From NCBI GenBank assembly GCA_965204215.1, contig CBDBDZ010000014.1, positions 1,324,588 to 1,388,587 of the forward strand: DNA of 64,000 nucleotides, given 5' to 3'. Position 1 is the first letter of the stretch. Every line of letters starts with the position of its first letter. Under the pieces are notes generated by a model that saw nothing but the letters and a program-made list of their open reading frames with translations, was not told where the DNA came from and ran no database searches. This document shows, piece after piece, positions 14,492 through 64,000 of this stretch. This DNA is from Pseudomonadales bacterium (GTDB lineage: Bacteria > Pseudomonadota > Gammaproteobacteria > Pseudomonadales > GM7GCV1). A program made the position numbers and the translations under genes.

Positions 14492-14499
14492 ACTTGTTC

Positions 14500-25801: not shown

Positions 25802-25811
25802 GATATTTGGC

Positions 25812-25840
25812 AATAAAATACGCAGGAGCGATACTTTATT
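25812..25840. repeat. Rep-D hairpin repeat, copy 3
   Basis: AATAAAATACGCAGGAGCGATACTTTATT followed by GGCAGGTTAATAG, 11 nt after the rnt stop. Confidence 0.55.
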
Positions 25841-25968
25841 GGCAGGTTAATAGTGCTATGCTCCTGGTTTAAACACAATATATAGTGGTCTTATGATTTA
25901 TTTACCTCTTATATTATTGTTTAGTCATTTTTTTTAATGTAATATGGGCATTGTACTTATGAATTTTT

Positions 25969-25990
25969 AACCTAAATTATGCATTAGAAA
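25969..25990 (+). repeat. Rep-E motif copy (AACCTAAATTATGCATTAGAAA)
   Basis: Same 22-mer as 19469-19490 with 2 mismatches. It lies in the long AT-rich region upstream of the giant gene. Confidence 0.5.
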
Positions 25991-26448
25991 TTGTAGCGAA
26001 AACAAAAATGTCAGTAAAAATAGTAGCTCGTGCAGGGATAATAAGCGGCAGCATAGCAAGTCTGTGCTGAGCATTATGTTTTGAGCAAGTTGATGTTTTG
26101 AACATCTTTTTGGGATGTAGCAGGTTGCTGGTGTATAATCTGGATCTAAGCTTTTCAATAAAGTCTACACACTTATTTATTCAGTCTTTGAAAACAAAAA
26201 ATAAAACTATAAAAGGATTTTCGTCAATTCATGGCTTTGTCACCAGCACTTTTTTTATGCTGTTGATAAGGATTGTTATTTGCTTTATTTTTTTGTTTTC
26301 CATGCAGCTTCATTCGCAGAGTAACGCTACGACAGTTGTTACCTTCCTCGGTACTGTCACTGAGATTGTAGAACCTACAGGCGGCAACTTTTTCTGAGGA
26401 AGTCGTGAAATTTTTAAACCCTGCCAGGTTAAAGGAATAATTCCCTAT

Positions 26449-28596
26449 ATGAATAAGCTAATATTTCTATCCACTTGGGTTGCGAAACTCTGCCTTTTGT
26501 ATCTTCTGGAAATGACTCAGGCTTATGCTCAGACGACTGAGGTGTTCCGTCAGGACTTTGGTGAGGGTACCACTGCCGTTGATGTGTCTGCATTTTCTGG
26601 CTTGGAGGCATTTATAGTGCAATTTACTGCGGTCCCAAGTTTTGTGACTACTGGCTATGCGATACGCGATGAACTTAACTTTAGTGGGGGAGCCATGGCT
26701 AATGAGGACTTTACACCTGGAGATACGAATGGGCGCATGTTATTTGTCAATCCGGACACAGGAGCTACTGTGAATCAGGTAATATTTGCCCTGGCACTTG
26801 ATAATCTATGTGCTAATACTACATTTACTCTCAGCTACCAGATTGTTTCTTTGTTTAACGGAACAAACCCTAATATTCTTGGCAATATTCGCCTTTTAAA
26901 TCCGGGTGCTGCCCTTAACAGCACAACAGGTAATTTAATTGCCACTGTAGGAGGGGTGAATATTCCCTACACGGCTAATAACAATGGAGGCAATGTAATT
27001 GATCCTGATGAGTACATTACACAAGCAGTAACTTTTACGACTCCTAGTCTGGGTGGTCCGACACTGTCAGCAGTGCTTCAACTTGTGCAAAACCAAGCTT
27101 TGGTTGCTCTAGGTAATGATAGTGGGATAGATCATTTTATAATGACAGCAAATCAGGCTGATATCTGCCTGGCGGCGACCAATACAGTTAGCGTCGAGAG
27201 TTCTCCAGCGGTTGCCAATAATGCCGATACGGTGCCTATCACGGCTGCTGTTACTGGTCTGGCTAATTCCGCTGGTAATGGTGTCACTGTTACATTTGAC
27301 TTTGAACCAGCGACTTCATCGGCAGGTAGCAGTGCATCCTGTGTTACTGACAGTAGCGGTATGTGCAGTGTTAATGTGACTTCTTCGGTAGCAGGTACCT
27401 TCAGTGTAACGGCGTCGTTTGAGTCTACGGTGCTGGATACAGGTACATTCACCTTTGAAAATACTATCGATTTTACGCTTGCGCAGACGACGGTTAATTT
27501 AACAGAGGATGAAGATGCTATTGATCGTTTCACCATAGATATTACCAATGTCAGTAGCGTATCGGGTGGGGTAGGTACGTTTTCGGTGGCAATTGCCTCA
27601 GGTTCTATTTTCGCAACGACGAATACAGAACCCGAAGTGTCTTTTGATAATGTTGAAGTTATAACTTCGAGCAACTTATCCACAGCGCAAACAGCCACAT
27701 TATATTTTACGGTCAAGCCAGATACTTTCGGTACTGGTGTTTTGAGAGTCACCTTAACGCAAGGGGCAGAGCAAATACAACAAGATGTCACAGTCAATGT
27801 CACGCAGGCAGGCAATGCACCGGTTATTGTTGCGTCTTTCCCGTTTGCTGGCGTTGTCACCAATCCGAGAGTTTTTGGTGGTAACATTTACGGACTTAAT
27901 ACCACAGCACAGGGTTGGTTTACTCATAGAAATCAGGTGACTGCCATTGCCGGCGCAAATGGTGATATGCTGACCATTTATAGCGATGAAGAGAATGGTT
28001 TTATAGCGAATAATTATGCCTCTGGGCTTTTTATTGGCATCACTGAAGGTGTTAATGGTGCAAGCAGAAACGGTGCAAATGCAGAGTGGTATTGGCTGGC
28101 TGAAGGTACAGAACTATTCGCTAGAGGTGATAACATTAGAAATTCATCTGATGTAGCACCCGGGTTTTATTTTCCTGGTGGTCTTATAAATGATTTTGAT
28201 TCTAATGCTAGTGGAACTGATGGAAGTAACGGCCCTTTTGCGGTGATTTATTCTAATGCTAATAATTGGGGAGATATATTTGAGGGTAATAACCGAAGTG
28301 CAGTCTATGAGTTCCAGGGTGCAGGTACTGCGCTAAGTAGTATTGTTGCCAGTAGCAGCGTTAATGAAGACAGCGGGCAAATAACGGTTATTACCCTCTC
28401 AGGAGCTGATCTGGATGGTGATAGCTTAAGCTGGAGTGCAAGCAGTGACTCTGGTAGTGTTAGTCTGGGCACCCCCACGCTTAGTGTGGCAGGGTTATCA
28501 GGTGATATTCCTGTGAATTTTACACCTGCCTCAATTTTTCAGGTACAGCTACCATTACTGTTACCTTGTCGGCTAATGCAGATGCAACCTCAGTGA
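26449..28596 (+). CDS. Giant Calx-beta/cadherin-like surface protein, N-terminal reading frame (frame 1), interrupted by a 1-nt frame break near 28532
   Basis: AAGGAA lies 12 nt upstream of the ATG. The signal peptide is MNKLIFLSTWVAKLCLLYLLEMTQAYA/QT. A Big_1-like Ig domain follows (VPITAAVTG..GNGVTVTF...CVTDSSGMCSVNVTSSVAGTFSVTASF), then the first lectin-like plus cadherin-like module. The last ~20 aa (IFQVQLPLLLPCRLMQMQPQ*) are out-of-frame relative to the paralogous copy at ~30010. Confidence 0.8.
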   Translation: MNKLIFLSTWVAKLCLLYLLEMTQAYAQTTEVFRQDFGEGTTAVDVSAFSGLEAFIVQFTAVPSFVTTGYAIRDELNFSGGAMANEDFTPGDTNGRMLFVNPDTGATVNQVIFALALDNLCANTTFTLSYQIVSLFNGTNPNILGNIRLLNPGAALNSTTGNLIATVGGVNIPYTANNNGGNVIDPDEYITQAVTFTTPSLGGPTLSAVLQLVQNQALVALGNDSGIDHFIMTANQADICLAATNTVSVESSPAVANNADTVPITAAVTGLANSAGNGVTVTFDFEPATSSAGSSASCVTDSSGMCSVNVTSSVAGTFSVTASFESTVLDTGTFTFENTIDFTLAQTTVNLTEDEDAIDRFTIDITNVSSVSGGVGTFSVAIASGSIFATTNTEPEVSFDNVEVITSSNLSTAQTATLYFTVKPDTFGTGVLRVTLTQGAEQIQQDVTVNVTQAGNAPVIVASFPFAGVVTNPRVFGGNIYGLNTTAQGWFTHRNQVTAIAGANGDMLTIYSDEENGFIANNYASGLFIGITEGVNGASRNGANAEWYWLAEGTELFARGDNIRNSSDVAPGFYFPGGLINDFDSNASGTDGSNGPFAVIYSNANNWGDIFEGNNRSAVYEFQGAGTALSSIVASSSVNEDSGQITVITLSGADLDGDSLSWSASSDSGSVSLGTPTLSVAGLSGDIPVNFTPASIFQVQLPLLLPCRLMQMQPQ

Positions 28597-30430
28597 CAGT
28601 GAGCGTAACAGTCAATGAGGTAAATGATGAACCCTCTTTCACAGTGGGCAATGCCATCACACGAAGTGCGGATACCAACCCTCAAACAGTAACGGCTTTT
28701 ATTACCGATGCAACGCCTGTGGAAGCAGGTCAGACTCTGGCATTCATTGTCAGCAACAATAATAACAGTCTTTTTTCGAGCCAACCGGCAATTGATGCCA
28801 ATGGCACATTGAGCTTTACGTTTGCCAGCGATGCAGCAGGCAGCGCAACGGTTTCAGTAGTTTTGATGGATAATGGCGGTACGGCTAATGGTGGGGATAA
28901 CCTTTCCGATGCTCAAAGCTTTGTGATTACGGCTGCGGGGCCGCCTGCTTTTACGCTTGCGCAGACGACGGTTAATTTAACAGAGGATGAAGATGCTATT
29001 GATCGTTTCACCATAGCTATTACCAATGTCAGTAGCGAATTGGGCGAGACAGGTACGTTTTCGGTGGCAATTGCCTCAGGTTCTATTTTCGCAACGACGG
29101 ATACAGAACCCGAAGTGTCTTTTGATAATGTTGAAGTTATCACTTCGAGAGACTTATCCACAGCGCAAACAGCCACATTATATTTTACTGTCAAGCCAGA
29201 TACTTTCGGTAGCGGTGTTTTGACCATAACCTTAACGCAAGGTGCGCAGCAAATACAACAAGATGTCACAGTCAATGTCACGCAGGCAGCCAATGCACCG
29301 GTTATTGTTGCGTCTTTCCCGTTTGCTGGCGTTGTCACCAACCCGAGAGTTTTTGGTGGTAACATTTACGGACGTAATAACACATCACAGGATTGGTTTG
29401 CTCATAGAAATCAGGTGACTGCCATTCCCGGTGTCAATGGTGATATGGTGACCATTTACAGCACTGAAGAATTTTTGTTTCTATTGAATGCTTTTAGTCC
29501 TGTCAACACTGCTTTTCTGGGCATCACTGAAGGTGTTAATGGAGCAAGCAGAAATGATGCGGATGCAGAGTGGTATTGGCTGTCTGAAGGGACAGAACTA
29601 TTAGCCAGAGGTGGTGCTATCAATGGTCCATCTGATGTAGCACCCGGGTTTTATTTTAGAAATGGTAGTATTTTCGATGAGTTTGATTCTAATTTTTTTA
29701 CTACTCCTGATCGAAATGATGGACCTTTTGTAGGGGCGTTTCTTTTTAATGGTGGCTGGATAGATTTTGCTGCGGCTAACGTGCGTGATGCAGTCTATGA
29801 GTTCCAGGCGCCAGGCACTGCGTTAACCAGTATTGTTGCTGGTACCAGCGTTACTCAAGGCAGCACAGAGCAAACAACGGTTATTACCCTCTCAGGGGCT
29901 GATCTGGATGGTGATAACTTAAGCTGGAGTGCAAGTAGCGACGATGGCAGTGTTAGTCTGGGCACCCCCACGCTTAGTGTGGCAGGGTTATCAGGCGATA
30001 TTCCTGTAAATTTTACACCTGACTCCAATTTTTCAGGTATAGCCACCATTACTGTTACCTTGTCAGCTAATGCAGAGGCAACCTCAGTGACAGTGAGCGT
30101 AACAGTCAATGAGGTAAATAATGAGCCCTCTTTCACAGTGGGCAGTGCCATCACACGAAGTGCGGATACCAACCCTCAAACAGTAACGGCTTTTATTACC
30201 GATGCAACGCCTGTAGAAGCAGGTCAAACTCTGGCATTCATTGTCAGCAACAATAATAACAGTCTTTTTTCGAGCCAACCGGCAATTGATGCCAGTGGCA
30301 CCTTGAGCTTTACGTTTGCCAGCAATGCAGCAGGCAGCGCAACGGTTTCAGTAGTTTTGATGGATAATGGCGGTGGCGATGATTTATCAGATACGCAAAG
30401 CTTTGTGATTACGGCTGTGGCGGCATCGGC
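27472..30430 (+). repeat. Two tandem copies of a ~1.48-kb coding module (Ig-like + lectin-like + two cadherin-like segments)
   Basis: 27472-28948 and 28949-30430 both begin TTTACGCTTGCGCAGACGACGGTTAATTTAACAGAGGATGAAGATGC and end ...CAAAGCTTTGTGATTACGGCTG. The flanks are near-identical while the central ~450 bp is strongly diverged. Confidence 0.85.
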
Positions 30431-33400
30431 TACACTAACGCCAGCAAACCTGATTTTAACAGAAGGCGCGACAGCCAGCTTTACAGTGAGTTTAGGCAGT
30501 CAGCCTAATAACCCGGTAACGGTATCGGTGGCAAATCCAGATACCAGTCAATTAACAGTATCACCTCAGACATTAACATTTTCAACTTCTAATTTTAACA
30601 TAGCCCAGACAGTAACAATAGTAACAGTAGAAAATACAATTGTAGAAGCCAGTGAGACCGTGCCGATTCATTTAAACTTTATCAGCACAGATACGAATTT
30701 TAATACGTTGTCAGATACTGTGAGTGTGGTTATTATTGATAATGATACCGCCACATTTAGCGTAGCTGATGTGACGGTGTCAGAGACAGCAGGCGCTGCG
30801 ACTGTCACTGTTGCGCTGGACTTGCCGATTGAAGGCGGTGCTACACTTACCTTGATGAGTGCAGACTTTGCTCCGGTTGATGCTGCTGCCGGAAGTGATT
30901 ACAGCGCAACCACCGCAACGCTGTTTTTTGCCAGTAACAGCACCACAGCTCAAAGTTTCAGTGTTGGCATTATTGACGATACCCTGGTTGAAAACCTGGT
31001 TGAGGGCACTGAGCAGTTTCGCATTGATATCACTGCGGTTAACCCGGTTGAAGCTATTGCAGCAAGTGCATTTAATCTGGGTGATACGGCGACGGTATCC
31101 ATTACCGATAATGACACCACTACCATCACCATAGCAGATGTAAGTGCAGCAGAAGGTGATGGGCCTAACAATGTGACGGTCACCATTAGCTTGAGTAACC
31201 CGGTTGAGGGCGGACTGACTGCCACCATTGCCAGCAGCGGCAATTCAGCTCTCAGTGGCAGTGATTTTTCAGCACTGAGTCAGGTTATCAGTTTTGCCGA
31301 TAGCAGCACCGCCAGTAGCAGTGTGCAGTTGACTGTTTTAGGTGATGCAATTATTGAAGCAGATGAGACCTTGCAACTGTTTGTTGCCAGTGTTGCCGCA
31401 GCCGAGGCCTCGAACAGCCAGATACTCAGACAAACTGGCACCTTTACTATTGAAAATGATGATTTTGCTGCCATCACCATTGCTGATGCCAGTGGCAGTG
31501 AGTCGTCAGGCACTATCAGTGTCCGCTTTAATGTGAATTTGGCGGTTGCCGGTGGTTTTACCCTGACAGTGCAGAGCGATAGTGGCAGTGCGATAGAAGG
31601 CGTCGACTTTAGCTCTGTTGATTCACAGCAAGTTGCTTTTGCCGGTAGTGCCAATGAAACCCAGACCCTGGTATTGACAGTTACTAACGATACGATTATT
31701 GAGGCTAATGAAACCTTGCGTATTCGTATCAGTGCAGTAAACCCTGGTGTTGCACAGGCTGGCGATTTTAATATTAGCGACACCGCAACGCTGACGATAA
31801 TAAACGATGATACCGCCACATTTAGCGTAGCCGATGTGACGGTGTCAGAGACAGCTGGCGCTGCGACTGTCACTGTTGCGCTGGATTTGCCGATTGAAGG
31901 CGGTGCTACGCTTACCTTGATGAGTGCAGACTTTGCTCCGGTTGATGCCGCTGCTGGCAGCGATTACAGCGCAACCACAGCAACGCTGTTTTTTGCCAGT
32001 AACAGCACCACAGCTCAAAGTTTCAGTGTTGGCATTATTGACGATACCCTGGTTGAAAATCTGGTTGAGGGCACTGAGCAGTTTCGCATTGATATCACTG
32101 CGGTTAACCCGGTTGAAGCTATTGCAGCAAGTGCATTTAATCTGGGTGATACGGCGACGGTATCCATTACCGATAATGACACCACTACCATCACCATAGC
32201 AGATGTAAGTGCAGCAGAAGGTGATGGGCCTAACAATGTGACGGTCACCATTAGCCTGAGTAACCCGGTTGAGGGCGGACTGACTGCCACCATTGCCAGC
32301 AGTGGCAATTCAGCTCTCAGTGGCAGTGATTTTTCAGCACTGAGTCAGGTTATCAGTTTTGCCGATAGCAGCACCGCCAGTAGCAGTGTGCAGTTAACTG
32401 TTTTAGGTGATGCAATCATTGAAGCAGATGAGACCTTGCAACTGTTTGTTGCCAGTGTTGCTGCAGCCGAGGCCTCGAATAGCCAGATACTCAGACAAAC
32501 CGGCACCTTTACTATTGAAAATGATGATTTTGCTACTATTAGTATTGCTGATGTCAGTGCGAGTGAGTCGTCTGGCACTATCAGTATTGGCTTGAGTGTG
32601 GATTTGGCGGTTGCCGGTGGTTTTACCCTGACAGTACAGAGCGATAGTGGCAGTGCGATAGAAGGCGACGACTTTAGCTCTGTTGATTCACAGCAAGTTG
32701 CTTTTGCCGGTAGTGCCAATGAAACCCAGACCCTGGTATTGACAGTTACTAACGATACGATTATTGAAGCCAATGAAACCTTGCGTATTCGTATCAGTGC
32801 AGTCGACCCTGGTGTTGCACTGGCTGGCGATTTTAATATTAGCGACACCGCAACGCTGACGATAATAAACGATGATACCGCCACATTTAGCGTAGCTGAT
32901 GTGACGGTGTCAGAGACAGCTGGCGCTGCGACTGTCACTGTTGCGCTGGATTTGCCGATTGAAGGCGGTGCTACACTTACCTTGATGAGTGCAGACTTTG
33001 CTCCGGTTGATGCTGCTGCTGGCAGCGATTATAGCGCAACCACCGCAACGCTGTTTTTTGCCAGTAACAGCACCACAGCTCAAAGTTTCAGTGTTGGCAT
33101 TATTGACGATACCCTGGTTGAAAACCTGGTTGAGGGCACTGAGCAGTTTCGCATTGATATCACTGCGGTTAACCCGGTTGAAGCTATTGCAGCAAGTGCA
33201 TTTAATCTGGGTGATACGGCGACGCTATTCATTACCGATAATGATACCACTACCATCACCATAGCAGATGTAAGTGCAGCAGAAGGTGATGGGCCTAACA
33301 ATGTGACGGTCACCATTAGCTTGAGTAACCCGGTTGAGGGCGGACTGACTGCCACCATTGCCAGCAGTGGCAATTCAGCTCTCAGTGGCAGTGATTTTTC

Positions 33401-36400
33401 AGCATTGAGTCAGGTTATTAGTTTTGCCGATAGCAGCACTGCCAGTAGCAGTGTGCAGTTAACTATTTTAGGTGATGCAATCATTGAAGCAGATGAGACC
33501 TTGCAACTGTTTGTTGCCAGTGTTGCCGCAGCCGAGGCCTCGAACAGCCAGATACTCAGACAAACTGGCACCTTTACTATTGAAAATGATGATTTTGCTG
33601 CCATCACCATTGCTGATGCCAGTGGCAGTGAGTCGTCAGGCACTATCAGTGTCCGCTTTAATGTGAATTTGGCGGTTGCCGGTGGTTTTACCCTGACAGT
33701 GCAGAGCGATAGTGGCAGTGCGATAGAAGGCGACGACTTTAGCTCTGTTGATTCACAGCAAGTTGCTTTTGCCGGTAGTGCCAATGAAACCCAGACCCTG
33801 GTATTGACAGTTACTAACGATACGATTATTGAAGCCAATGAAACCTTGCGTATTCGTATCAGTGCAGTCGACCCTGGTGTTGCACAGGCTAGTGATTTTA
33901 ATATTAGCGACACCGCAACGCTGACGATAATAAACGATGATACCGCCACATTTAGCGTAGCTGATGTGACGGTGTCAGAGACAGCTGGCGCTGCGACTGT
34001 CACTGTTGCGCTGGATTTGCCGATTGAAGGCGGTGCTACACTTACCTTGATGAGTGCAGACTTTGCTCCGGTTGATGCTGCTGCTGGCAGCGATTACAGC
34101 GCAACCACCGCAACGCTGTTTTTTGCCAGTAACAGCACCACAGCTCAAAGTTTCAGTGTTGGCATTATTGACGATACCCTGGTTGAAAATCTGGTTGAGG
34201 GCACTGAGCAGTTTCGCATTGATATCACTGCGGTTAACCCGGTTGAAGCTATTGCAGCAAGTGCATTTAATCTGGGTGATACGGCGACGGTATCCATTAC
34301 CGATAATGACACCACTACCATCACCATAGCAGATGTAAGTGCAGCAGAAGGTGATGGGCCTAACAATGTGACGGTCACCATTAGCCTGAGTAACCCGGTT
34401 GAGGGCGGACTGACTGCCACCATTGCCAGCAGCGGCAATTCAGCTCTCAGTGGCAGTGATTTTTCAGCACTGAGTCAGGTTATCAGTTTTGCCGATAGCA
34501 GCACCGCCAGTAGCAGTGTGCAGTTGACTGTTTTAGGTGATGCAATCATTGAAGCAGATGAGACCTTGCAACTGTTTGTTGCCAGTGTTGCCGCAGCCGA
34601 GGCCTCGAACAGCCAGATACTCAGACAAACTGGCACCTTTACTATTGAAAATGATGATTTTGCTGCCATCACCATTGCTGATGCCAGTGGCAGTGAGTCG
34701 TCAGGCACTATCAGTGTCCGCTTTAATGTGAATTTGGCGGTTGCCGGTGGTTTTACCCTGACAGTGCAGAGCGATAGTGGCAGTGCGATAGAAGGCGACG
34801 ACTTTAGCTCTGTTGATTCACAGCAAGTTGCTTTTGCCGGTAGTGCCAATGAAACCCAGACCCTGGTATTGACAGTTACTAACGATACGATTATTGAAGC
34901 CAATGAAACCTTGCGTATTCGTATCAGTGCAGTAAACCCTGGTGTTGCACTGGCTAGCGATTTTAATATTAGCGACACCGCAACGCTGACGATAATAAAC
35001 GATGATACCGCTACCTTTAGCGTAGCTGATGTGACGGTGTCAGAGACAGCTGGCGCTGCGACTGTCACTGTTGCGCTGGATTTGCCGATTGAAGGCGGTG
35101 CTACACTTACCTTGATGAGTGCAGACTTTGCTCCGGTTGATGCTGCTGCTGGCAGCGATTACAGCGCAACCACCGCAACGCTGTTTTTTGCCAGTAACAG
35201 CACCACAGCTCAAAGTTTCAGTGTTGGCATTATTGACGATACCCTGGTTGAAAATCTGGTTGAGGGCACTGAGCAATTTCGTATTGATATCAGCGCGGTT
35301 AACCCGGTTGAAGCTATTGCAGCAAGTGCGTTTAATCTGGGTGATACGGCGACGGTATCCATTACCGATAATGACACCACTACCATCACCATAGCAGATG
35401 TAAGTGCAGCAGAAGGCAATGGGCCTAACAATGTGACGGTCACCATTAGCTTGAGTAACCCGGTTGAGGGCGGACTGACTGCGACCATTGCCAGCAGTGA
35501 AAACTCGGCTCTCAGTGGCAGTGACTTTTCAACACTGAGTCAGGTTATCAGTTTTGCCGATAGCAGCACCGCCAGTAGCAGTGTGCAGTTAACTATTTTA
35601 GGTGATGCAATCATTGAAGCAGATGAGACCTTGCAACTGTTTGTTGCCAGTGTTGCTGCAGCCGAGGCCTCGAATAGCCAGATACTCAGACAAACTGGCA
35701 CCTTTACTATTGAAAATGATGATTTTGCTGCCATCACCATTGCTGATGTCAGTGGCAGTGAGTCTGGGACTATCAGTATTGGCTTGAGTGTGAATTTGGC
35801 GGTTGCCGGTGGGTTTACCCTGACAGTGCAGAGCGATAGTGGTAGCGCGATAGAAGGCGACGACTTTAGCTCTGTTGATTCACAGCAAGTTGCTTTTGCC
35901 GGTAGTGCCAATGAAACCCAGACCCTGGTATTGACAGTTACTAACGATACGATTATTGAAGCCAATGAAACCTTGCGTATTCGTATCAGTGCAGTCGACC
36001 CTGGTGTTGCACTGGCTGGCGATTTTAATATTAGCGACACCGCAACGCTGACGATAATAAACGATGATACCGCCACATTTAGCGTAGCTGATGTGACGGT
36101 GTCAGAGACAGCTGGCGCTGCCACTATTTCTGTTACTCTGGACTTGCCGATTGAAGGAGGGGCTACGCTTACCTTGATGAGTGCAGACTTTGCTCCGGTT
36201 GATGCCGCTGCTGGCAGCGATTATAGCGCAACCACCGCAACGCTGTTTTTTGCCAGTAACAGCACCACAGCTCAAAGTTTCAGTGTTGGCATTATTGACG
36301 ATACCCTGGTTGAAAACCTGGTTGAGGGCACTGAGCAATTTCGTATTGATATCAGCGCGGTTAACCCGGTTGAAGCTATTGCAGCAAGTGCGTTTAATCT

Positions 36401-51400: not shown

Positions 51401-54400
51401 TGGAGACGATGATACCACTGTTAATACCACATTGACTGTTGTCAGTGCTACTGCGCAGGAAAGTAACGGCGCAACCGCCTTGTATCGCATCGAGTTTGAT
51501 AGACCCATAGCAACCGATGTCGTGGTGACATATACAACTGCTGGTACTGCAGAGTCGGGAATTGATTATACTGATATAGGTACCAGCAAATTGCTGGCAA
51601 GTGGTAATACAGAGGTTGAATTGGTTATTGTACCTGTGGTTAATGATAATCTGGCAGAAGGCAATGAAACGATAGTATTGACATTAGAAACCTTTAGTGG
51701 GCAACCTTCGCAAGTCAGTATTGTTCGTGATACCAATTCAGGTAATACTGTGATTGTAGATAATCCTGATGATTCCCAGATCATTGCAAGTTTGACGGTT
51801 TCAGATAACAGTGCTGGTGAAGCCGTTGCTGATGATGAAACAGCGAACACAGGTAGTTTCAGAGTGTCCCTGGATAATCCTGCAGATGAAATAATTACGG
51901 TTAGTTATCAGATAAATTCCGACTCAAGTGCACTCAATGCATTAGATTATTCAGAACTTACCTTGTCGGCATTTATCCCTGCATTTAGCGATTTTATTGA
52001 TATTGTTATCACGCCATTGGATGATGATTTAGGTGAAGGCACTGAATCAGTGGGACTGATCTTAACTACTGCTCCCACTACAATGATATCAGGAGTGACT
52101 TTACAAATTAATGCTTCAAGTCAATCGGCAGTTTTAGATATTGTTGATGACCCTCGCGATTTACAAATTAATGTTGAAGTCGATGCGATAGATGCATCCA
52201 TTTTTGAACAGGGTACTACTTCTGGTAACTTCAGAATAAGTATTGCCAATCCACTCACTAACGATTTGGTGGTATTTTATACTTATACAGGTAATGCGTC
52301 TTTAGGCGAGGACTTTGATGCCCTTGGTACTTCTGCAACCATAGCAGGTAACGCTAGCTCGACTTTCGTTGATGTCATCATTACAGCGATAGATGATTTG
52401 ATAGCAGGCGAGGGCGATGAAACTGTGGGGCTTGAACTCACCACTGCTACTTTCCCCAATCCTTTATTTGATGTGATTGTTAGTACAGATGCAGCGGTAA
52501 TGAATGTAGTTGACAATGATATAGAAATTACATTGCGTTTGGTTTCTGATGATTCAACGGCAGACGAAAATGGCGATACAGCAGTTTTTGAAATTTCAAT
52601 TCAGGAAGGCACATTTCTGGTAGACCCATTGACTATTATTTATAGTACGGGAGGAAGTAGCGCTAATAACTTTAGTGACTATAATATTGTACCTGTTACA
52701 GCAATTATCAATGCGGGGCAAACGAATACTTTCTTAACCTTAATACCTGTGGATGACAATATAGCAGGAGAGGGTAATGAAAGCGTTCAATTGAGCTTGA
52801 CTTCGCACATGGGGGCGCCAGAAGACTTACTGGTAATTTTAAGCACTGATAGTTTGGTGGTTAATATTGAGGATAATGATACTGAACTTAGAGTCGATCT
52901 TAATATTGCACTGTCACCAGCACAAGAAGCCCCTGTTGGCGATCCAGAATTTCAGACAGGTATTTTCCAGATTCAACTGGATAGGCTGTTAGAGCAAAAC
53001 CTTACGGTTGAATTTAGCGTTAGTGGTAGTGCTCTTCAGGGACAGCGTTATAATACGTTAACCAATACTGCCAATTTAGCTAATGATAACATTGTCGTTT
53101 TGGCGGGCGACGCAACGGCTAATATTGTAATTACGCCAATAGACGATAATAGAATTGATGGCGTCCAAAATGTCATTTTAGAATTATCAACTGTTACAGG
53201 TGCGCCTTCGGCTTCAGTGTTAACCGTCACTTTGGAACGGGGCACATCGTCTATTGATATTATTGATGATGATGATGAAATTACTTTATTTATAGAGGCT
53301 ACAGATACATCGGTATCTGAAAGAGGCCAAAACACAGGAAGCTTTTTGATAGCTATTGTAGAAGATGTATTGTTATCACAAAATTTGACCGTGGCGGTAA
53401 TACCATCGTCAAATTTTGCTATCGAAGGCGAAGATTATGCAGATATTGCGGATAATGTGATTATCATCCCACCTAGTACCTTTACTGAAATTACTATTAC
53501 ACCACTAATCGATGGCATAGCAGAGGGTGATGAAACAGTCACATTAAGTTTAGCTACCATAAGTGGTGCGCCTGTGGGTGTTACTGCACAGGTTAGTGCA
53601 AGTAGTTCCAGCGACTTTGTCATCATAGAAGATGCCGACAGAGATGTTAGTATAGAAATTAATAATACAATAGCCACTGCTAATGAAAACGGAGCGCAAG
53701 GTATATTTACTATTAATTCCAGTTCGAGATTTAATGAACCAATAACCATTTTCTATAGCATTGGAGGTAGCGCAAAAAATACGCTTGATTACACCACCAT
53801 ATCTAACTCTGTAGTAATTGCTGGTAATACAACAGAACAAATTATCGTTATCAATGCATTCAGTGATGGTATTGGCGAAGGCTTTGAAACGGTGGTGCTG
53901 CAATTGACATCCACTGATAATATACCAGCTATGGTTAATCTTACACTTCAATCGACACCATCAACCATAGTGATAATGGACGATCCAGACGATGCTTTGG
54001 TGCTTGTGTCTTTACAAATGGGTGATGCAACTGCAGCAGAGGCAGATAGCAACACGGGCACCTTCTTAATTAGCCTGGATAATCCACTGGCTAATAGCCT
54101 GACTATTGCCTTTACTTTGAGCGGCAGTGCTCAAAATGGCATTGATTATGACAACATTACAGGCACAATTCTGTTACCTGCATTATCAAATAATGTATTT
54201 GTGGTTATTACTCCTATTGAAGGTGATAATCTTGCAGAAGGTGTAGAAACGGTCAGTCTGACTTTTGAATCATTTGCTGGAGTTGCCAATGGCGTCACCA
54301 TTATCAGTTCAAATCCTGCAATTTTAGTCAATATTATTGATAATCCACTGGATGCTAATGTCATGTTAACTATTGAAGCCATTGATGATTCGGCTATGGA

Positions 54401-57400
54401 AAACTTAAGTAATTCAGAGACAGGGATTATACGTTTTTCAACTAATAGGCTGTTATCGAATGACTTAACGGTATTTTATTCGTTAAGTGGTTTCAATACT
54501 GCAATAGAATCACAAGATTATGTGTCTTTATCTGATAATATTGTGATATCAGGCGCTATGGGTAGCACAGAGACTTTGTTGGTGATAACCCCTGTAGATG
54601 ATATGATAGCAGAAGGTCTTGAATCAATAGTGGTAAGTTTAGCCAGTACCAGTGAGCCAGCCACTGGAATTAGCTTAACTCTTAGCACCGATAGCGCTTT
54701 GGTTAATATTGAAGATAATGACACTGATTTGGCGATTGCAGTTATAGCTCAGGATGCAACGATTATTGAGGATAATGGGAATAGTGAATTTAATTTTACG
54801 TTAAATGATGGTGAATCATCTGCCAGTGATTTAACCATTTTTTATTCATTACTGGGAGGTGCCAGCTTATTGAATAATGACTTTCTTATTGCTCAAACTA
54901 ACTCTATTGTTCTGCCTGCGCTTAGTAACTCTTTAACGATAGCAATTACTGCACTTTCTGATAATGTTGCTGGAGAGGAGACTGAAAGTGTCAATATCAC
55001 CATTACAACGGTTAGCGGACTTCCAGCAGGAGTGACCATCAATACTGATGCTGGCAGTGATACAGTGGGAATTATTGATTCCGATATTAATGTGATAGGC
55101 ACACTGACGTTAGTTGATGGCAGCGCGGCAGAAGCCAGTACACTCAACCCTTCGGTAGGCGACCCTGCCAGTTTTGGCTTTTCTCTGGATAGAGAGTTTG
55201 CACAAGATGTCAGTCTGAGTTATGTGCTTTCAGGTACAGCAGATTTAACCGATTTTACATCATCTGCAGCTAATCCTTTTACTATTCTAGCAGGCAGTTC
55301 AGTTATAGCCCTCAATTTTGAACCCTTTAGTGATGGTATTGGTGAAGGTTTAGAAAATCTGATTTTAACTTTAGATACTTTAACGGGTGCTCCATCTTCT
55401 GTTTTCATACAGTTTAATTTACCCATTTCACAACAATTCGATATTATTGATAACCCTGTTGAATCGGAGCTTATCGTCACATCCAATGCCTTGGCAGCTA
55501 CAGTCAATGAAGCCGTAACCAATGTCGCGTTTGGCGTGCAATTGAGTAGCGCCCTTAATCAAACAATCACAGTTACTTATTCATTGGGAGGTACTGCGCA
55601 ATCACCAGATGACTATAACTCAGTGCCACTCTCGCTTCTTTTTCCTCCCAGAGTCAACACTCAAGTCCTTACACTAACATTGGTTGATGATAACCTGATT
55701 GAATTTGATGAATCCATCGAGTTAATTTTAAGTACGGTAACGGGTTCACCTGCCTCTGTTACCCGTACAGTATCTACTGACAATTCGGTCATTGTTATTG
55801 AAGATAATGATACCACTTTGACGGTTTCACTCAATTTGGCGGGTAATGATGCCAGCGCATCTGAAATAGGTACCATTGAAAATGGTAATTTTATTATTGT
55901 AGCGTCAAACCCGGCGGATTTTGACTACACCATTTTCTATTCATTATCAGGTAGCGCTTTGAATATAATGGATTACGCAACGCTGACGAACTCAGTCATC
56001 GTCAGCGTGGGTCAGGTTAACAGCACTATTGTGATTGATCCGCAAGATGATTTCATTGCAGAGGGTGATGAAACGATTGGTTTGAACCTGACAACCGTTA
56101 TTGGTGTTATTAATGGTGTTAGCGTTTTAATTTCAACGGTTGGAGATACTGTCGTCATTAGTGATGCAGACTTAAATTTAAACGTGAGTTTGCAACCGGC
56201 AATCGGTACAGGCAGTGAGGATAATGTGACAGCAGCCTATGCTATTGGTTTTGATGGTGATTTGGTTACAGTTTCCGATGTGATGGTAAGCTACACATTA
56301 AGTGGTTCAGCAGCCAATGGCTCTGATTATGTAGCAGTGTCTGGAACAACAGTGATACCAGCATTTACGAATCAATTGATATTTCCTGTTACCGTGATTG
56401 ATGATTTTGTAGGCGAAGGCACTGAAAATGTTGTCGTCACTTTACTGAATGTCAGCTCATCAAACCTGCCAGCGGAGATTGTATTGGGTATTGGTTCATC
56501 GACTTTAATTCCTGCTATCGAGATACTGGATAACGATACCATTCTCCCTCTTCAGTTATTAACATTTGACATAGATGCTCAGGAAGAAAATGAGAACTCC
56601 GGCTCTTTTAGAATACGCATAGGTAACAATGATAATACAACTCTGGCGAGTAGCTTAACCGTCGCTTATAGCGTATTTGGCAGCGCTGAAATTAATCAGG
56701 CTGACCCTGCAGAGGATGATTATGTCATAGACTTTGGCCCTGTGGTAATCCCCGCTGGTAACAATGATATATTGGTAGTCTTTACGCCTGTTGATGATGT
56801 TCGTCTGGTTGAAGGTAATGAAACTGTAGTGTTGCGATTGGTGTCGTCAGCTGGACAACCTGTAGGGGTATCGATTATTGAGAGTAGCGCCCCACAATCT
56901 ATAGCCATTACAGAAAATGATACTAATGTGATAATTCTTTTGGATGTATTAGATGGCAGTGTTTCGGAGTCAGGACCTAACAATGGTTCATTTATATTCC
57001 AGACTAATAATGGTCAAAGCCTGGTTGATGATTCCGTTATCATTTTCTATTCGGTAGCAGGCAGTGCTGATAATGGAAGCGATTATATACAGATAGGCAA
57101 CAGCGTTGTATTGCCTCGAAACTCGACATCTATTGTTCTTGCTATTGAAGTTATCAGTGGCGATAGTACGGTTGAAGGTGACGAAACCGTTGCTCTAATG
57201 CTTAACACCATTGTTACAACCGCTGCTGTTGTTATTGAAATTGATTCTGAATCTTCCGAAATTGTGATAGAGGATCAAGACGATACTATTAGTCTGGGTG
57301 TCAATACATTACAGGCTGATGCAATAGAAGGTGAAGGCTCCAATGGTATTTTCACTATTGCACTAGACGATGATTTAGTCTCTCAAGCACCGTTAATAAT

Positions 57401-60400
57401 AGCTTACAGTCTGGTCGGCGAGGCCGTTAATGGTAGTGATTATAATCCAATAGGCAATACGATTGTACTGGGTTCGGAAGAAGCTTTTGTGCAAGTATCG
57501 ATAGACGCCATAGCTGATTTTAGCGCAGAAGGTCTGGAAACAGTCAGCTTAATACTGACGACATTCAGTGGTTTCGCCCCCAACATTAATGCATCCATAA
57601 GCAGCGCTAATTCTGCTACCGTTAATATCATAGATAGTGATGCAACTGTTACCTTTTCTATTGTTGCATCCATCGTACAAGGCGATGAAAATTCATTGGG
57701 TATTAATATTCCCCAGTTTACGGTTTTTATTGCCGATAGCTTGGTGGTTGATGAAGCAACCCTGCTGGAATATAGAATTTCAGGTAGCGCTGATAATATC
57801 ATTGATTATGAATTGATTGGAACGAGCGTCGTTATTAATGCCAACAGCAATAACGCTTTGATAAGTATTCTGCCGATTAATGATAATGAAGCCGAAGGTG
57901 TAGAGAGTGTTGTTTTAACCCTGGTTACAGTTAGTGATATAGCAAGTGGTGTTAATGGTTTAATCAGCGCTACTACCGCAACAGCCAGCGTTATTATTAA
58001 TGACGATGACGATAATCTCCAGGCTTTTATTACTGCGCCTGATGCCATTGCAGAGGAATCAGGAAATACTACAGCTACCTTCAGAATCACATTAGGCGTT
58101 GACAATACAGTGAGTGATCCTGTAACTATTTCCTATTCGTTAATGGGCTCTGTGACAAATGCTCTGGATACTAACAATCTTACTTTACAACAATTAATTC
58201 CCGCGAATACCAATTTTGTAGATATAGTGGTAACAGCAGTGGATGACAGTGTTTCTGAAGGCATCGAGACCTTGCAAATACAGCTAACCTCAATTAATGG
58301 CACGCCCGAGGGTGTCACGGTTTTTGTCACTACGCAAACCGCATTGATTACTATTATTGATAATGATCTTACTGTCAACCATTTTGTCACGGTTGCTAAC
58401 AATCCTGCTTTTGAACAACCCAATAGTGCAGGGCAATTTAATCTGGTTTTAAGTAATCCATTTGAAGTGGATGTGGTTAGTCGTTTTTCATTGCTGGGTA
58501 CTGCCCGTGTTAGTGATGACTATGCCACGCTTGCAATTACACAATTAATTAATGCAGCTACAACTCAGATCGAGCTTATTATTAGTCCTGTTGCGGATAT
58601 CATTGCAGAGGGCACAGAATCTGTACAATTGTCTCTGACGACTCTGGTAGGAGTACCCAAAGGCATCAGTATTACCATTCCTGCTACTTCAAGTCTGGGT
58701 ACGATTGCTATTATTGATGATCCGAATGATAGTCCTGTATCGGTGATTATTGAAGCGGTTGATGATCTGGCAAGTGAAACGCCAGGAAACGATGCTGAGT
58801 TTACAATCGCCCTTGACAGCGGCAGGTTAATTGGTACAACCATTACAGTGACTATCAGTTTAAGTGGTTCAGCTACTAATGGAGCTGATTACAATACATT
58901 AGCTACAACTGTAGTGTTGCCATTGGAATCGTCTTCTGTGAATGTGGCTATTGCCACGATTGACGATGTTTCAGCCGAAGGACAGGAGAACATAATCATC
59001 AGCATAGGTACTGTCATTGGGGTGCCAGCTGGCGTGGTTGCTGCTCTCAATGCCAACAGTTCAACCGTTAACATTTTTATTGACGATAACGACAATATTT
59101 TGGATTTTGGGTTTGCCGCTACAGATAATGTCGCATCAGAAGTTGGTGGTGATTTTGGCATTTTCCAAATTGCTATTAGGGGGTCCGCTATTCCTCAGGA
59201 CAACCTGATATTTAGTTATATCATTGGTGGCAGCGCCAGGAACGCAGATGATTATAGCAGGATAGGAACAACAGTATTGTATCCATCTGGTAGCAGTTTT
59301 GTTAATATTAATATACAGCCGTTATCTGATAACGTGAGTGAAGGTGTTGAGTCGATATCCATCACTTTAGTTACGGTGACAGGTGCTGCAGAGGGTATTA
59401 TGATTAGCTTTGATTCTCAGACAGAAGTTGTTGCCATTAATGATGACCCGGATGATTTGAATATCACTATCGATTTTTCTGTCAGTAACCCCAATGCTTC
59501 AGAAGCTAATTTAACGACCGCTACTTATAGTATTACGATGAATCGATTGCTGAGCACTGAGTTGAGTGTTGATTACTCATTGGCAGGTAGTGCTGCAAGT
59601 GGTATTGACTACCAAAGTTTTGACAGACCTATTATTGTACCAATGGAAACCAGCCGTTTTATTCTGGTAGTAACGCCTGTTGAGGATAATCTGATTGAGG
59701 TGGACGAAACCATTGTGATACAAAACGTAACCTATAGCGGAATACCCAGAGGTGTTACTGCATTTTTCACTTCATCGGGCTTATTGTCAAGTATTGCAGA
59801 TAATGATGATCTGTTAGCGGTTACATCATTATCACTGGATTCAACCATTAGTGAAGCAGGTGCTATTGCTGGTAATTTTGCAATTACTCTCAATTCCGGT
59901 TTATCAAAAGACATTACAGTTGAATACACTTTTGCAGGTGCTGCTACAGCTAATCAGGATTTCAATGTTAACGCTACCACTGTATTAGTCAGTGCGGGAT
60001 TGACGAATGTACAGCTACCAATAGCACCTTTGGATGATAACCTTATCGAAGCAGATGAAAATGTGATATTGGATTTAGTTAGCGTATCGGGAGTAGCATC
60101 TGATGTCACTGTCACTATTTCCAGTGTCAACCCTCAACTGATTATTATTGATGACGACCAAGCGTTGACTATTACGTTTAGTGTTAATGATATAACGGCT
60201 AGTGAATCGGGAGATACTGCCAGTTTTGCAATATCGTTAAGCAACCCTGTCAACAATGATGTTACCATATACTACAGTATCGCAGGCACTGCACTTGAAG
60301 GTGTTGACTATCAGCCTATTGGCAATACGTTAGTCATTCCTTCGAGCACTACAATGGAATTAATTGTAATAGATCCCCTTGCCGATGCCTTGGGTGATGG

Positions 60401-63400
60401 TATGGAAAATGTGAGTATTAATCTTACATCGGTCACAGGAATCAGCTCTGATATATCCCTTGGTCTGGACACCAGTTCCGAGCAAATAACCATACTTGAC
60501 AGTTTAATTTCATTGAGATCGGTCACTATTGATAACCTTGTATCGGAGCTTGCGGATAATACGGCGCTGGTATCATTTATATTGGATCAATCCTTATCGA
60601 GTGTCAATCTCATTGTGTCTTACACGATTACAGGCACAGCTGTAAATGGTACCGATTACACGTTATTGCCTGGTACTATTGCGATTCCCCCATCAAGTAC
60701 TCAAGTTGATTTAATCATTGCAGGTATAGGCGATAATGATATTGAAGGCACTGAGACAATTGGTTTAATGATCACCTCCCATAATGGAGCATCCCAAGGA
60801 GCCAATATTCAGCTTGATAGCACTTTTGAATTACTAACGCTACTTGATACAACAGTACTGACATTGAACGCTGTTGCAGACGATGAACTTGCCGCTGAAA
60901 TTAATAATAATCCGGGTATTTTCAATATACAAATTGATCAGTCTCGTCTGGCACCATCGGATTTGACGGTTGTATACTCGCTGATTGGAACTGCACAAAA
61001 TGGTGTTGACTATAATTTGATTGGCACTACTCTACTATTGAGGCAAAGTGCAAATGCAACTTCTCTGGAAATTAGACCCATCACTGACAACCTTAATGAA
61101 GGCAACGAGACAATTGGTTTGCAATTGAGCAGTTTGATTGGTGCCCCAGACGGTTCCAACATTAATATTAGCACTACAGTGGCAATTATCACCATTATTG
61201 ACAGTACGATGATAGAATTGTCAGTAGTAGCTACCGACAATAGTGCTTCTGAAAATTCACTGAGCGAGGAAGGGCAGTTTAGTATTCAGGTTGACGAGGC
61301 GATACCATCAGAATTGGTGGTTATCTATACTGTTAGAGGCACAGCCAGTAATGGTGTTGACTATGAGTTACTGGATGATAGAGTCACTATTTTGGAAAAT
61401 GAACGCTCAGCCGTTATTACTGTTAATCCTATTGTTGATGACCTGGTTGAAGGTACTGAGAGTATTACTATCAGTGATTTAACGCTGGCCTCAGTACCTT
61501 TGGGAGTTAGTGCTGCGATTAGCACTGGTTCCGATTCAGCGGTGGTAGATTTGTTTGATGCTCCCGTGGCACTATCCGTTTTCAGAACCGGTGGTACTAC
61601 ACAAGCCTCTGAGTCTCCGAGAGCAAATACGTTCTTTTTTGAATTGAGCGGCGCTTTGGACAATAATTTAATTGTGACTTACAGCATCACTGGCAGTGCG
61701 TTAAATGGCATTGATTATAGACAGATACCTTATACCATTGTTATTGGTAATAGTGCACTGCAATCAGCAGAGGTTTCAATACTGCCTTTATCTGATGACA
61801 TTATTGAAGGAGCAGAGTCGGTAGTGATTACCATCTTGTCGACATCTTCGCCACAACCCTCTGGTGTGCAAATTGATTTCAGTATAACGTCAACTGAAAT
61901 AGTCATTGCAGATGAGGATGTTAATGAAACGTTGACGATTATTGCTAACTCGGCCACTATTGACGAAGATAATGGTACAGCTACATTTGAAATCAGAGCA
62001 GGTAAAATAAGTGTACTACCGCTAACGGTTGTATACACTGCTAATGGAATTGCAGGTGGAGCGACTTTAAATGCTGACTATTTGATTGATACAGGTCCCG
62101 TTGTGATACCGGCTAACAGCACACAGGCTTTCATTGTTGTGACGGCGATAAGCGATTTTAATGTGGAAGATGATGAGACTATACAGGTTTCCATTGGTGC
62201 TGTATCAGGGCAGCCAGATGGCGTTACCTACTCGCAGGTACAACAATCAGCTCAAATGGTCATTATTAACGACCTTGAATTAATCGTCTCTATTGACAGT
62301 TTTGATGCGACAGCTTCTGAGCTACCTGTCCAAAACGGCAGGTTTGTTTTAGCTATCGAAAATGGGTTGATCACAGATTTCAATACGCTTGTGACCTATA
62401 GCATTACAGGTTCAGCCAGCCCAGGTGATTATGTGTCTATTGCCAATACAGCTATCATTTTGGCAGGCACGACTTCAGTTAATGTTATTATTACACCGAT
62501 TAATGATACTTTATCAGAGGGTGTTGAATTTGTACGTATTGATTTGGTAAGTGCTGAACTCTCCAACGCAGTGCCAGTTTTAATTGGAGCAACTAATACG
62601 GCTACAATGATTATTGAAGATGGCCAGCAAGCGTTATCGATTGGACTGAATACAACGGTACCAAGTCTCAATGAAACGAGTGTGGTTAATTCTGGCAATG
62701 TTCAAGTCGTGCTCGACAACCCTGTTGCAACCGACATATTATTTAGTTACACCTTGCGAGGAACTGCTACAGCAGGGGTTGACTATCAAGCGTTATCAGG
62801 CACTGGCGCTATTCCCAGCGGCAACACTTCCATCGATTTGCTTTTTGTTCCGGTTATTAATGATTTGCTGACGGAAGGTACAGAAAGCATTGTTGTAGTA
62901 CTGACAGCGTTTACAGGGGAACCCACAGGAGTATCATTGACGGCTGCTGTTACTGAAACTTTATTAACTATCATTGATGCCGACCTCAATGTAACAATTA
63001 ACACGACAGTTAATGATTTCACTGCATCCGAACCGGCTTTAGCAAATGACACTGCATCGTTTACCCTATCCCTGAATAGAAATATCGTTAATCCCGTTAC
63101 GGTATCTCTGAGTATAGGCGGCAGCGCTCAAAATGGTACGGACTATGTGGCATTGCCTACTACATTGGTGATACCGCAGCGAACTCAAATTTTGACATTG
63201 ACTATTAATGCCTTGGATGATGTGGTCAATGAAATTAATGGGGAAAGTATCACTATTGATATTGTTACTGTGACCAATGCTCCTGATGAGGCCATTATTA
63301 CTATAGTAAATAATGATGATGCTATCAATATTCTGGATGACCCTGCAGACTCGCAACTTGTTTTTGATGTTGATATTCAAGACACTCAAATTAATGAGGT

Positions 63401-64000
63401 TGGTTCGCCTGATAGTACTTCGGTGACCTTTTCCATAAGCTCAATCTTCAGTACGACATTGACATTGTATTATTCGTTACAAGGAAACGCTGATAATGGA
63501 CTGGATTACGAGCTTATACCTACTACTGTTGTGTTCCCGGCAGGTAGTACTTCACAGTTTTTAATCATTACAAGCATTGATGACAATCTTATTGAAAACA
63601 TTCAAGAGCAGTTAATCATTAGTCTTGATACAGTAGTGGGGACTCCTGTTGGAACGGTTGTCTCTTTTGATACGGATCAGACTCTTAATATTATGAGTAA
63701 TGAAACGAGTGTCGCATTAAATTTGAGTGTTGTCGATGCGACAGCAACCGAAGATTTAATTGACAATGCGGTGTATCGTATAGCTACTGATGGGTCTATA
63801 GCATTTGATGATCCTATTTTGCTAACTTATACATTATCTGGAAGTGCGAGCAATAGTTTTGATTATTCTGCATTAATTGGCAGGTTGTTATTCCCTGCTA
63901 AAACCACTTTTACAGACATTAGCATTGTACCAATCAGTGATACTATTGGTGAAGGTGATGAAACGGTGGTACTCCAGCTGACTTCAATTGCGACTCCGCC
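28506..64000 (+). CDS. Giant Calx-beta repeat protein, main reading frame (frame 3), open to the window end (3'-partial, more than 11,800 codons)
   Basis: No stop occurs in the frame whose codon starts are divisible by 3, from 28506 onwards. I hand-translated from 28506 to about 51.4 kb and spot-checked further on. The ORF track lists no frame-3 plus-strand ORF here, as expected if ORFs without a stop are omitted. The translation gives cadherin-like modules (VNEVNDEPSF) and then roughly 90 Calx-beta domains (G.DY...F......D...EG.E....L). Confidence 0.85.
30741..47608 (+). repeat. Homogenised tandem array: ~15.85 units of 1062/1065 bp, each encoding three Calx-beta domains (~355 aa)
   Basis: The same landmark (GTGCAGACTTTGCTCC) recurs at 30859, 31924, 32989, 34054, 35119, 36181, 37243, 38305, 39367, 40429, 41494, 42559, 43624, 44686, 45748 and 46810. 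The spacings are 1065 x4, 1062 x5, 1065 x3 and 1062 x3. The units differ only at scattered cassette-like sites. Confidence 0.95.
47609..64000 (+). repeat. Divergent Calx-beta domain array (~45 domains, period ~355-400 bp), protein-level repeats only
   Basis: The D..(I/L).EG.E motif recurs at about 48687, 49050, 49415, 49795, 50150, 50552, 50918, 51298, 51655, 52035, 52410, 52770, 53155, 53525, 53878, 54238, 54612 and onward. Each is preceded by Y.(I/L).G(T/S)A..G.DY. Confidence 0.85.

Follow-up and report, generated by a model that had tools for sequence, protein, structure and literature searches.

What does the right-hand part of the 64,000-nucleotide (nt) stretch of contig CBDBDZ010000014.1 analysed here (assembly GCA_965204215.1, Pseudomonadales bacterium; the whole stretch is called the window below) encode, when the public annotation offers for it a 715-amino-acid (aa) protein and leaves at least 35.5 kb of coding sequence unreported? 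Sequence analysis makes it probable that a giant fibrillar surface adhesin of a Cellvibrionales-like gammaproteobacterium is encoded here by a chromosomal gene, of which the stretch from 26449 onwards contains the 5' 37.5 kb. The architecture put forward for this protein in an earlier reading of the letters alone (the sequence-only reading) proved to be essentially correct, with its Calx-beta and Big_1 domains confirmed by Pfam, and the points at which that reading requires revision are given where the relevant evidence is discussed.

The case for a gene of this size begins with a single reading frame. The plus-strand frame whose codon starts are divisible by 3 runs from 28506 to 64000 with 0 stops in 11,831 codons (35,498 nt), exactly as had been claimed, and the other two plus-strand frames contain 765 and 1,516 stops across 28506-64000; with such counts the open frame cannot be due to chance. 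The program-made list of open reading frames (ORFs) omits those running past the window end, which explains why the giant gene is invisible in it, as the earlier reading had noted that it was; only periodic antisense ORFs of 194-197 aa are listed there. These form a ladder on the minus strand (31280-46759), with GTG starts and one member per repeat unit of the array described below, and are shadows of the repeats rather than genes.

The earlier proposal to join this frame directly to the start codon at 26449 does not hold. The ORF at 26449-28596 (plus strand, 715 aa) has codon starts at 1 mod 3 and a TGA stop at 28594-28596, and it overlaps the giant frame, in a different frame, at 28506-28593; a one-base repair is needed to connect the two. 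Restoration of one base at 28529-28533 gives a stop-free reading of 12,517 codons from 26449 to 63998. The claimed extent of more than 37.5 kb and more than 12,500 codons thus stands for the repaired gene and falls for the sequence as deposited, in which the longest uninterrupted frame measures 35.5 kb and lacks its own start codon at a domain boundary. The repaired product would have at least 12,517 residues, a partial mass of about 1.28 MDa and a pI of about 4. The window end at 64000 cuts its last Calx-beta domain, and the gene runs on beyond the window. Its features are as follows:

26449-26529, plus strand: start codon and predicted Sec-type signal peptide (residues 1-27, MNKLIFLSTWVAKLCLLYLLEMTQAYA, followed by QT)
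26530-27183, plus strand: orphan domain of about 220 aa (residues 28-245), without family match
27184-27456, plus strand: Big_1 immunoglobulin (Ig)-like domain (PF02369, residues 246-336, E=1.6e-11, 44.6 bits, cutoff 34.9)
27472-28949, plus strand: cassette 1, comprising an Ig-like domain, a C-type lectin-like domain (CTLD; 27817-28344), Big_9 (28327-28640) and an Ig-like domain; contains the frame break
28529-28533, plus strand: frame break within Big_9 of cassette 1, where copy 2 has one base more
28950-30419, plus strand: cassette 2, comprising an Ig-like domain, a CTLD (29295-29834), Big_9 (29817-30134) and an Ig-like domain; frame intact
30429-30737, plus strand: divergent leader beta-sandwich, weakly Calx-beta-like (local profile E=1e-8)
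30750-47759, plus strand: homogenised array of 16 tandem units of 1059-1065 nt with 3 Calx-beta domains each (k-mer periods 1062/1065 nt)
47760-63998, plus strand: 45 divergent Calx-beta domains, the last cut by the window end

The frame break falls where two neighbouring copies of the same segment can be compared. Cassettes 1 and 2, of about 1.48 kb (about 490 aa) each, are an internal duplication with 85.5% DNA identity, and in the approximately 450 nt flanking the break they are 93-98% identical. At 28525-28543 copy 1 reads CCTGCCTC-AATTTTT and copy 2 reads CCTGACTCCAATTTTT; with the extra C restored, copy 1 becomes CCTGCCTCCAATTTTT. The codons of copy 1 are in frame 1 upstream of the break and in frame 0 downstream of it, and encode ...VNFTPAS in the former and NFSGTATITV... 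in the latter, where copy 2 encodes ...VNFTPDSNFSGIATITV... in a single frame. After repair, the P-A-S-N-F-S-G of copy 1 pairs with the P-D-S-N-F-S-G of copy 2, and the continuity of the domain across the break is thereby shown by comparison with the second copy.

As to the origin of the break, we consider an assembly or polishing error slightly likelier than a genuine mutation, because mis-mapping and polishing errors are to be expected in a stretch that is nearly identical in the two cassettes. According to a recent survey, long-read assemblies commonly contain unique frameshifts in adhesin genes that are long and repetitive; these are often artefacts and difficult to distinguish from genuine frameshifts (bioRxiv 10.1101/2025.09.30.679566). 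Were the missing base real, which retains a substantial though lesser chance, the locus would be a fresh pseudogene or a two-part locus making only a 715-aa secreted N-terminal fragment (signal peptide, orphan domain, Big_1, Ig-like domain and one CTLD), with the 35.5-kb remainder untranslated. Any such mutation must be very recent, since the 35.5 kb downstream still carry neither stops nor further frameshifts, with conserved motifs and third-position-biased variation, all of which argues against a genuine lesion. On the other side stand the presence of the break in the deposited assembly, where the 715-aa ORF is the annotated product, and the lack of the giant product in the protein database. 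The site further lies outside any long homopolymer, the usual place of long-read indel errors; no other gene looks broken in the approximately 26 kb upstream or in the 35.5-kb frame, pointing to a low indel rate in this assembly; and genuine adhesin frameshifts have been documented in other species (bioRxiv 10.1101/2025.09.30.679566).

A further account of the same site invokes a -1 slip of the ribosome, programmed or leaky, at the U-run (A AUU UUU C), which would yield mostly the 715-aa protein and a few giant fibres. A -1 slip of tRNA-Phe from UUU (28537-28539) to UUU (28536-28538) re-pairs perfectly, and the product, ...PASIFSGTAT..., would be only one residue off copy 2. However, the heptamer departs from the canonical X XXY YYZ pattern, since its P-site Ile codon cannot re-pair, the 98 nt downstream fold no better than shuffled sequence (z = -0.32), and the identical U-run is found in copy 2, where the frame is intact. 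Slippage is hence exceedingly improbable.

The bulk of the repaired product is a stalk of 94 contiguous domains of about 110 residues, extending over 30429-63998. A local profile seeded from the window's own domains resolves it into 1 leader, 48 homogenised and 45 divergent domains, which reproduces the earlier count of about 48 homogenised and about 45 divergent domains and adds the leader, for which Pfam returns only sub-threshold fn3_6 and Big_2 matches. The Calx-beta identity of the stalk, previously read from motifs, is confirmed: the Pfam Calx-beta model (PF03160) scores 171.8, 264.5 and 314.7 bits on the three pieces scanned, far above its cutoff of 27. Pfam alone resolves 6 + 8 + 14 Calx-beta stretches in these pieces, and the rest are linked by the window-derived profile. 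In searches against the PDB the Calx-beta profile recovers the CBD1/CBD2 structures of the Na+/Ca2+ exchanger NCX1, the founding members of the family (2.7e-12), with the G.A..G.DY and DD...E motifs aligned; a direct phmmer search of three Calx-beta domains against PDB sequences gives nothing significant, such that a profile is needed to see the relationship.

The divergent domains have a mean pairwise identity of 28.7%, and yet the positions E12, G41, A43, D48, Y49, D74, E78, G79 and E81 (G.A..G.DY ... D...EG.E) are conserved in 78-100% of them, with the acidic residues E12, D48, D74, E78 and E81 at 96-100%. Among the homogenised units, which are 92.5-98.8% identical (about 88% for the last), differences at the three codon positions number 29/29/79. 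The conservation of the acidic positions and the third-position bias of the differences together indicate selection on a translated protein. From the conservation of these acidic residues the Calx-beta domains are also predicted to bind Ca2+.

The periods of the array were derived from k-mer spacing; Tandem Repeats Finder, with a maximum period of 500, reported nothing. Unit lengths fall into blocks (4 x 1065, 5 x 1062, 3 x 1065, 3 x 1062 and 1 x 1059 nt). Units 5, 9 and 13 resemble each other (97.6-98% identity) more than they resemble the units beside them, and there is an excess of k-mer spacings near 4,250 nt. These features hint that blocks of 4 units were duplicated as a higher-order repeat within 30750-47759. 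The same block has a G+C of 0.48-0.49 (versus about 0.40) and a G+C at third codon positions of 43.8%, the latter being 32.4% in the divergent Calx-beta part and 36.9% in housekeeping genes. The raised G+C could stem from GC-biased gene conversion in the array or from a separate origin of the amplified triplet.

The composition of the stalk is extreme. The Calx-beta part has no Cys, in agreement with the earlier reading, no Trp, almost no Lys or His, and about 13% D+E. In the joined product of 12,517 residues there are 1,640 D+E to 178 K+R, and Lys, His, Trp and Cys amount to 0.08%, 0.06%, 0.09% and 0.04%, respectively. Tryptic proteomics would detect almost nothing of such a protein, and trypsin-like proteases would largely fail to degrade it.

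At the N-terminus, the ATG at 26449 is preceded by AGGA 12 nt upstream. Residues 1-27 show a basic n-region (MNK), a hydrophobic core (Kyte-Doolittle maximum 1.81) and an A-x-A motif (AYA) directly before Q28. Judged by eye and by analogy with the relatives of the cassettes discussed below, a signal peptide is plausible here. The domain that follows is an orphan: residues 1-250 match nothing in Pfam even at E<=1, nothing in NCBIfam and none of the PDB sequences, and the first approximately 170 residues of the ORF have no HMMER match in 1.84 billion representative proteins. Its sequence (26530-27183) is rich in T, A, N and G. Its candidacy as an inverse-autotransporter barrel is unsupported, there being no Pfam match at E<=1, and the same holds for an RTX (repeats-in-toxin) retention module, for which Pfam, NCBIfam and PDB gave no match. 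The orphan domain may represent the true distal tip of the fibre. The Big_1 domain claimed beyond it is recovered by Pfam above the cutoff, at the position listed above.

The identity of the lectin-like part of the cassettes emerges from comparisons beyond the window. Pfam Lectin_C has no match at E<=0.01 on either piece containing the window copies, and a direct phmmer search of the cassette against PDB sequences returns nothing significant, requiring the use of a profile. Homologues of the cassette, of about 470 aa and about 30% identity, occur in 1-10 copies each in eight large proteins, and in two of these (P0251 and P0250) the homologous cassettes do match Lectin_C, with 41.0 and 40.1 bits (cutoff 22.6). 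A profile of the CTLD segment built from the window copies and these relatives, searched against the PDB, recovers the mannose receptor (1.9e-15) and DC-SIGN (1e-8), and also PLA2R and dectin-1. An AlphaFold2 model of the copy-2 CTLD (29295-29816), built on the alignment behind this profile, has a pLDDT (predicted local distance difference test) of 65.8 and a pTM (predicted template-modelling score) of 0.65; a Foldseek search with it yields CTLD structures for all of the top 50 matches, with a target-normalised TM-score of up to 0.73. A single-sequence AlphaFold model of the whole cassette (pLDDT 33) was not used. As the Lectin_C matches in relatives, the profile matches to solved lectins and the fold search of the model agree, the segment is identified as a C-type lectin-like domain, if an atypical one, and the earlier label of lectin-like is sustained by both the family profile and the predicted fold.

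The accompanying label of cadherin-like is only partly borne out. The segment in question is matched, when scanned alone, by the bacterial Ig domain Big_9 (30.4 bits, cutoff 23.6, E=7.5e-7), as are 14 of 18 family members, and Cadherin_5 gives a weaker match on the same segment. A profile of the Big_9 segment finds only a marginal match in the PDB (0.03).

A long tandem beta-sandwich stalk with binding-type domains at one end is the plan of a fibrillar adhesin, and this is what leads us to favour such a function. The protein would be exported by Sec, after which Ca2+ bound at the conserved D/E positions would turn the Calx-beta chain into a stiff rod, in the manner of other adhesin extenders; Ca2+-rigidified extender arrays are known from RTX adhesins (PMC7493085, PMC4083281). 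At 4-5 nm per domain, a value taken from other adhesin extenders, the rod might measure roughly 0.4 um. A C-terminal element beyond the window would hold it to the cell, so that the N-terminal CTLD cassettes, together with the orphan domain, would form the distal tip; the cassettes might there bind glycans or other ligands on surfaces. The 48 homogenised domains would be kept near-identical by unequal recombination or gene conversion, which is a recognised cause of changes in stalk length and would allow them here. The signal-like N-termini of the cassette relatives, along with their C-termini, lend support to such a Sec-dependent, C-terminally attached design.

Several observations weigh against this picture of an intact, lectin-tipped and Sec-exported adhesin. 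The deposited assembly carries the frame break, and the annotated product (P0001) has only 715 aa. This product is a singleton in the protein database, coming from NCBI/ENA; the annotation thus covers the N-terminal fragment alone and assigns no protein to the other 35.5 kb. The giant product itself has no self match in the protein database, and no close homologue of the whole protein was found in protein, genome-contig and metagenome searches: in the protein database the best matches for the last 1,000 residues of the window share about 30% identity and do not reach 1,800 aa in length, the window-end peptide finds only distant Calx-beta proteins of 770-1,800 aa among genome contigs, and two metagenome scans, one with a DNA pattern across the frame break and the other with cassette 2 as protein, returned no match. 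Within or beside the hydrophobic core of the putative signal peptide there are a Lys and a Glu. Neither window CTLD contains a cysteine, and thus both lack the Cys pairs of classical C-type lectins; in addition, they have FDSN where the relatives have the EPNN sugar/Ca2+ motif. For these two reasons sugar binding is no more than putative, and the window CTLDs are predicted to be either non-canonical binders or structural modules. The C-terminus, and with it the part expected to reveal the route of secretion and the mode of anchoring, lies outside the window, and the 26 kb upstream contain no secretion-system genes.

The last two points bear also on an alternative for export, namely a type I-secreted RTX-type adhesin whose N-terminal hydrophobic segment and orphan domain serve as an outer-membrane retention module, and whose RTX repeats and type I secretion system (T1SS) signal lie at the C-terminus beyond the window. 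The giant adhesins described from gammaproteobacteria are mostly of this kind (RTX/T1SS, 1,500-15,000 aa, with tandem Ca2+-dependent extenders), the C-terminus and the downstream genes, where the decisive elements would be, fall outside the window, and the authors of the work on BapP, a protein compared below, could not decide between a Sec signal and T1SS (PMC12153261). Nevertheless, no RTX nonapeptide array is present in the 12,517 residues, a single GGxGxD match being consistent with chance; no LapG-type [TPA]AAG site is found in the first 300 residues; and none of the T1SS genes (ABC transporter, membrane fusion protein, TolC-like) occurs in the upstream 26 kb. Moreover, the ligand-binding-type domains are N-terminal here and near the C-terminus in RTX adhesins, and the cassette relatives combine clean signal peptides with C-termini that are not of the RTX type. 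In light of this, a type I-secreted protein appears quite unlikely.

The fibrillar adhesin favoured above leads in its strongest form to an intact gene encoding a Sec-exported, non-RTX and non-T9SS (type IX secretion system) fibre of more than 1.3 MDa, with Cys-free C-type lectin heads and the orphan domain at the tip of a stalk of about 100 Calx-beta domains, held by a C-terminal anchor mechanism new for giant adhesins. In this complete form the proposal is rather doubtful; if true, it would add to T1SS and T9SS a third way of making megadalton surface fibres. An intact and Sec-dependent gene would also raise the question of how a 1.3-MDa acidic rod crosses the gammaproteobacterial outer membrane.

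The setting of the gene is that of an ordinary chromosome. The 26 kb upstream contain pgsA-like, ftsK, lolA, rarA, rsmD-like, isocitrate lyase and DDE transposase genes, and further those for an FGE-sulfatase/PEGA protein, hemB, brkB-like, leuS, holA, an amidohydrolase and RNase T. LeuS shares 63-67% identity with proteins of Cellvibrionales (Microbulbifer, Cellvibrionaceae, Halieaceae) and no more than 67% with anything else in the collections searched, and all five window proteins with an exact database match are singleton clusters at 90% identity. This identity level and the singleton clusters point to a poorly sampled Cellvibrionales-like gammaproteobacterium as the host, whose lineage lacks close sequenced relatives in these collections and whose G+C is about 40%. 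The transposase (552 aa, DDE_Tnp_1, minus strand, 9527-11185) belongs to an insertion sequence element lying among the housekeeping genes 15 kb upstream. An unusual pairing is seen at 12353-15570 (minus strand), where a 712-aa protein with CarboxypepD_reg-like, PEGA and FGE-sulfatase domains adjoins a TPR protein. Immediately before the giant gene there is an AT-rich spacer of 648 nt (25802-26448) with sigma-70-like sites (the best at 26110-26139) and tiny ORFs at 26232 and 26303-26397. It is long enough for an uncharacterised leader or regulator, and Rfam shows no regulatory RNA match in it or anywhere in the window.

Megadalton fibrillar adhesins govern the attachment of marine bacteria to particles, algae or hosts. 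Assemblies and annotations systematically lose or break them, and this locus is a clean example. The stalk is among the longest Calx-beta stalks on record, and the head cassette is known only from a few uncharacterised proteins.

The sequence-only reading had gone on to call genes of this size rare and the domain order unfamiliar from RTX adhesins such as LapA or MpIBP, which is too strong a claim of novelty, as giant signal-peptide-bearing Calx-beta surface proteins are an already published class. A protein from Kordia antarctica IMCC3317 (PMC7477175), RTX adhesins of up to 15,000 aa (bioRxiv 10.1101/2025.09.30.679566) and BapP of Pseudoalteromonas tunicata (PMC12153261) have all been described. 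The Kordia gene, of 50,835 bp, encodes 16,944 aa with a signal peptide, more than 100 tandem Calx-beta domains and a T9SS/gliding-type C-terminal domain (TIGR04131), deviates in G+C, and has large relatives of 3,864-12,288 aa in Flavobacteriaceae (PMC7477175). The window protein shares with it a predicted signal peptide (recognised by eye here), about 100 tandem Calx-beta domains, a mass of more than 1 MDa, a G+C off the genome average (here in the homogenised block, 0.49 versus about 0.40), a marine host and a presumed location at the cell surface. It differs in that the Kordia host belongs to the Bacteroidota and the Kordia protein has a T9SS-type C-terminus and no reported CTLD/Big_1 head. 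To our knowledge the T9SS/gliding-type route is not used by gammaproteobacteria, and a TIGR04131 C-terminus is unlikely in the window protein. The database proteins found share only about 30% identity with the Calx-beta region of the latter.

With RTX adhesins such as MpIBP, LapA, SiiE and FrhA the window protein has in common the megadalton size, the arrays of near-identical beta-sandwich extenders of about 100 aa (stiffened by Ca2+ in RTX adhesins), lectin-type domains (ligand-binding in RTX adhesins) and a frequent fate of mis-annotation or frameshifts in assemblies. However, these adhesins begin with a retention module, carry their ligand-binding domains at the C-terminal end, and have RTX repeats, a T1SS signal and adjacent transporter genes, whereas the window protein has a signal-like N-terminus, binding-type domains at its N-terminal end and no T1SS genes upstream. 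BapP (EAR30327), a Ca2+-dependent adhesin of a marine gammaproteobacterium, combines a predicted Sec signal (signal peptidase I type) with Calx-beta and Big_9 repeats (PMC12153261); unlike the window protein it lacks the CTLD cassettes, and it is far smaller.

The eight proteins sharing the cassette (P0247-P0251, P0254, P0257 and P0260) apparently represent an undescribed family of secreted proteins. They have 1,000-6,000 aa and are of secreted type, with signal-like N-termini in all eight. They contain no Calx-beta domains, their stalks being composed of He_PIG/Big_2-type repeats, and none of them matches the first approximately 170 residues of the window protein. Their C-termini carry tandem D-x-D-G-N Ca-loop repeats, FG-GAP-like repeats or an OmpA-type barrel: five of the eight end in two tandem D-x-D-G-N...DGL.I..YL repeats, and one ends in a GlyGly-like segment followed by the OmpA-type barrel. 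An assignment of the D-x-D-G-N repeats as dockerins finds no Pfam match, the resemblance being by eye only.

Intimin and invasin likewise pair Big_1 Ig-like domains with a C-type lectin-like domain at the tip, and one of the cassette relatives additionally matches Invasin_D3. In intimin and invasin the N-terminus forms a 12-stranded beta-barrel and the CTLD sits at the C-terminal tip, whereas the window protein has its CTLDs near the N-terminus, followed by the Calx-beta stalk, and its residues 1-250 have no match to the IAT_beta barrel at E<=1 in Pfam. Relative to all these systems, what is new is the combination in one protein of an orphan domain, Big_1, two Cys-free CTLD cassettes and a stalk of 94 or more Calx-beta domains, and the presence of such a protein in an unsampled gammaproteobacterial lineage.

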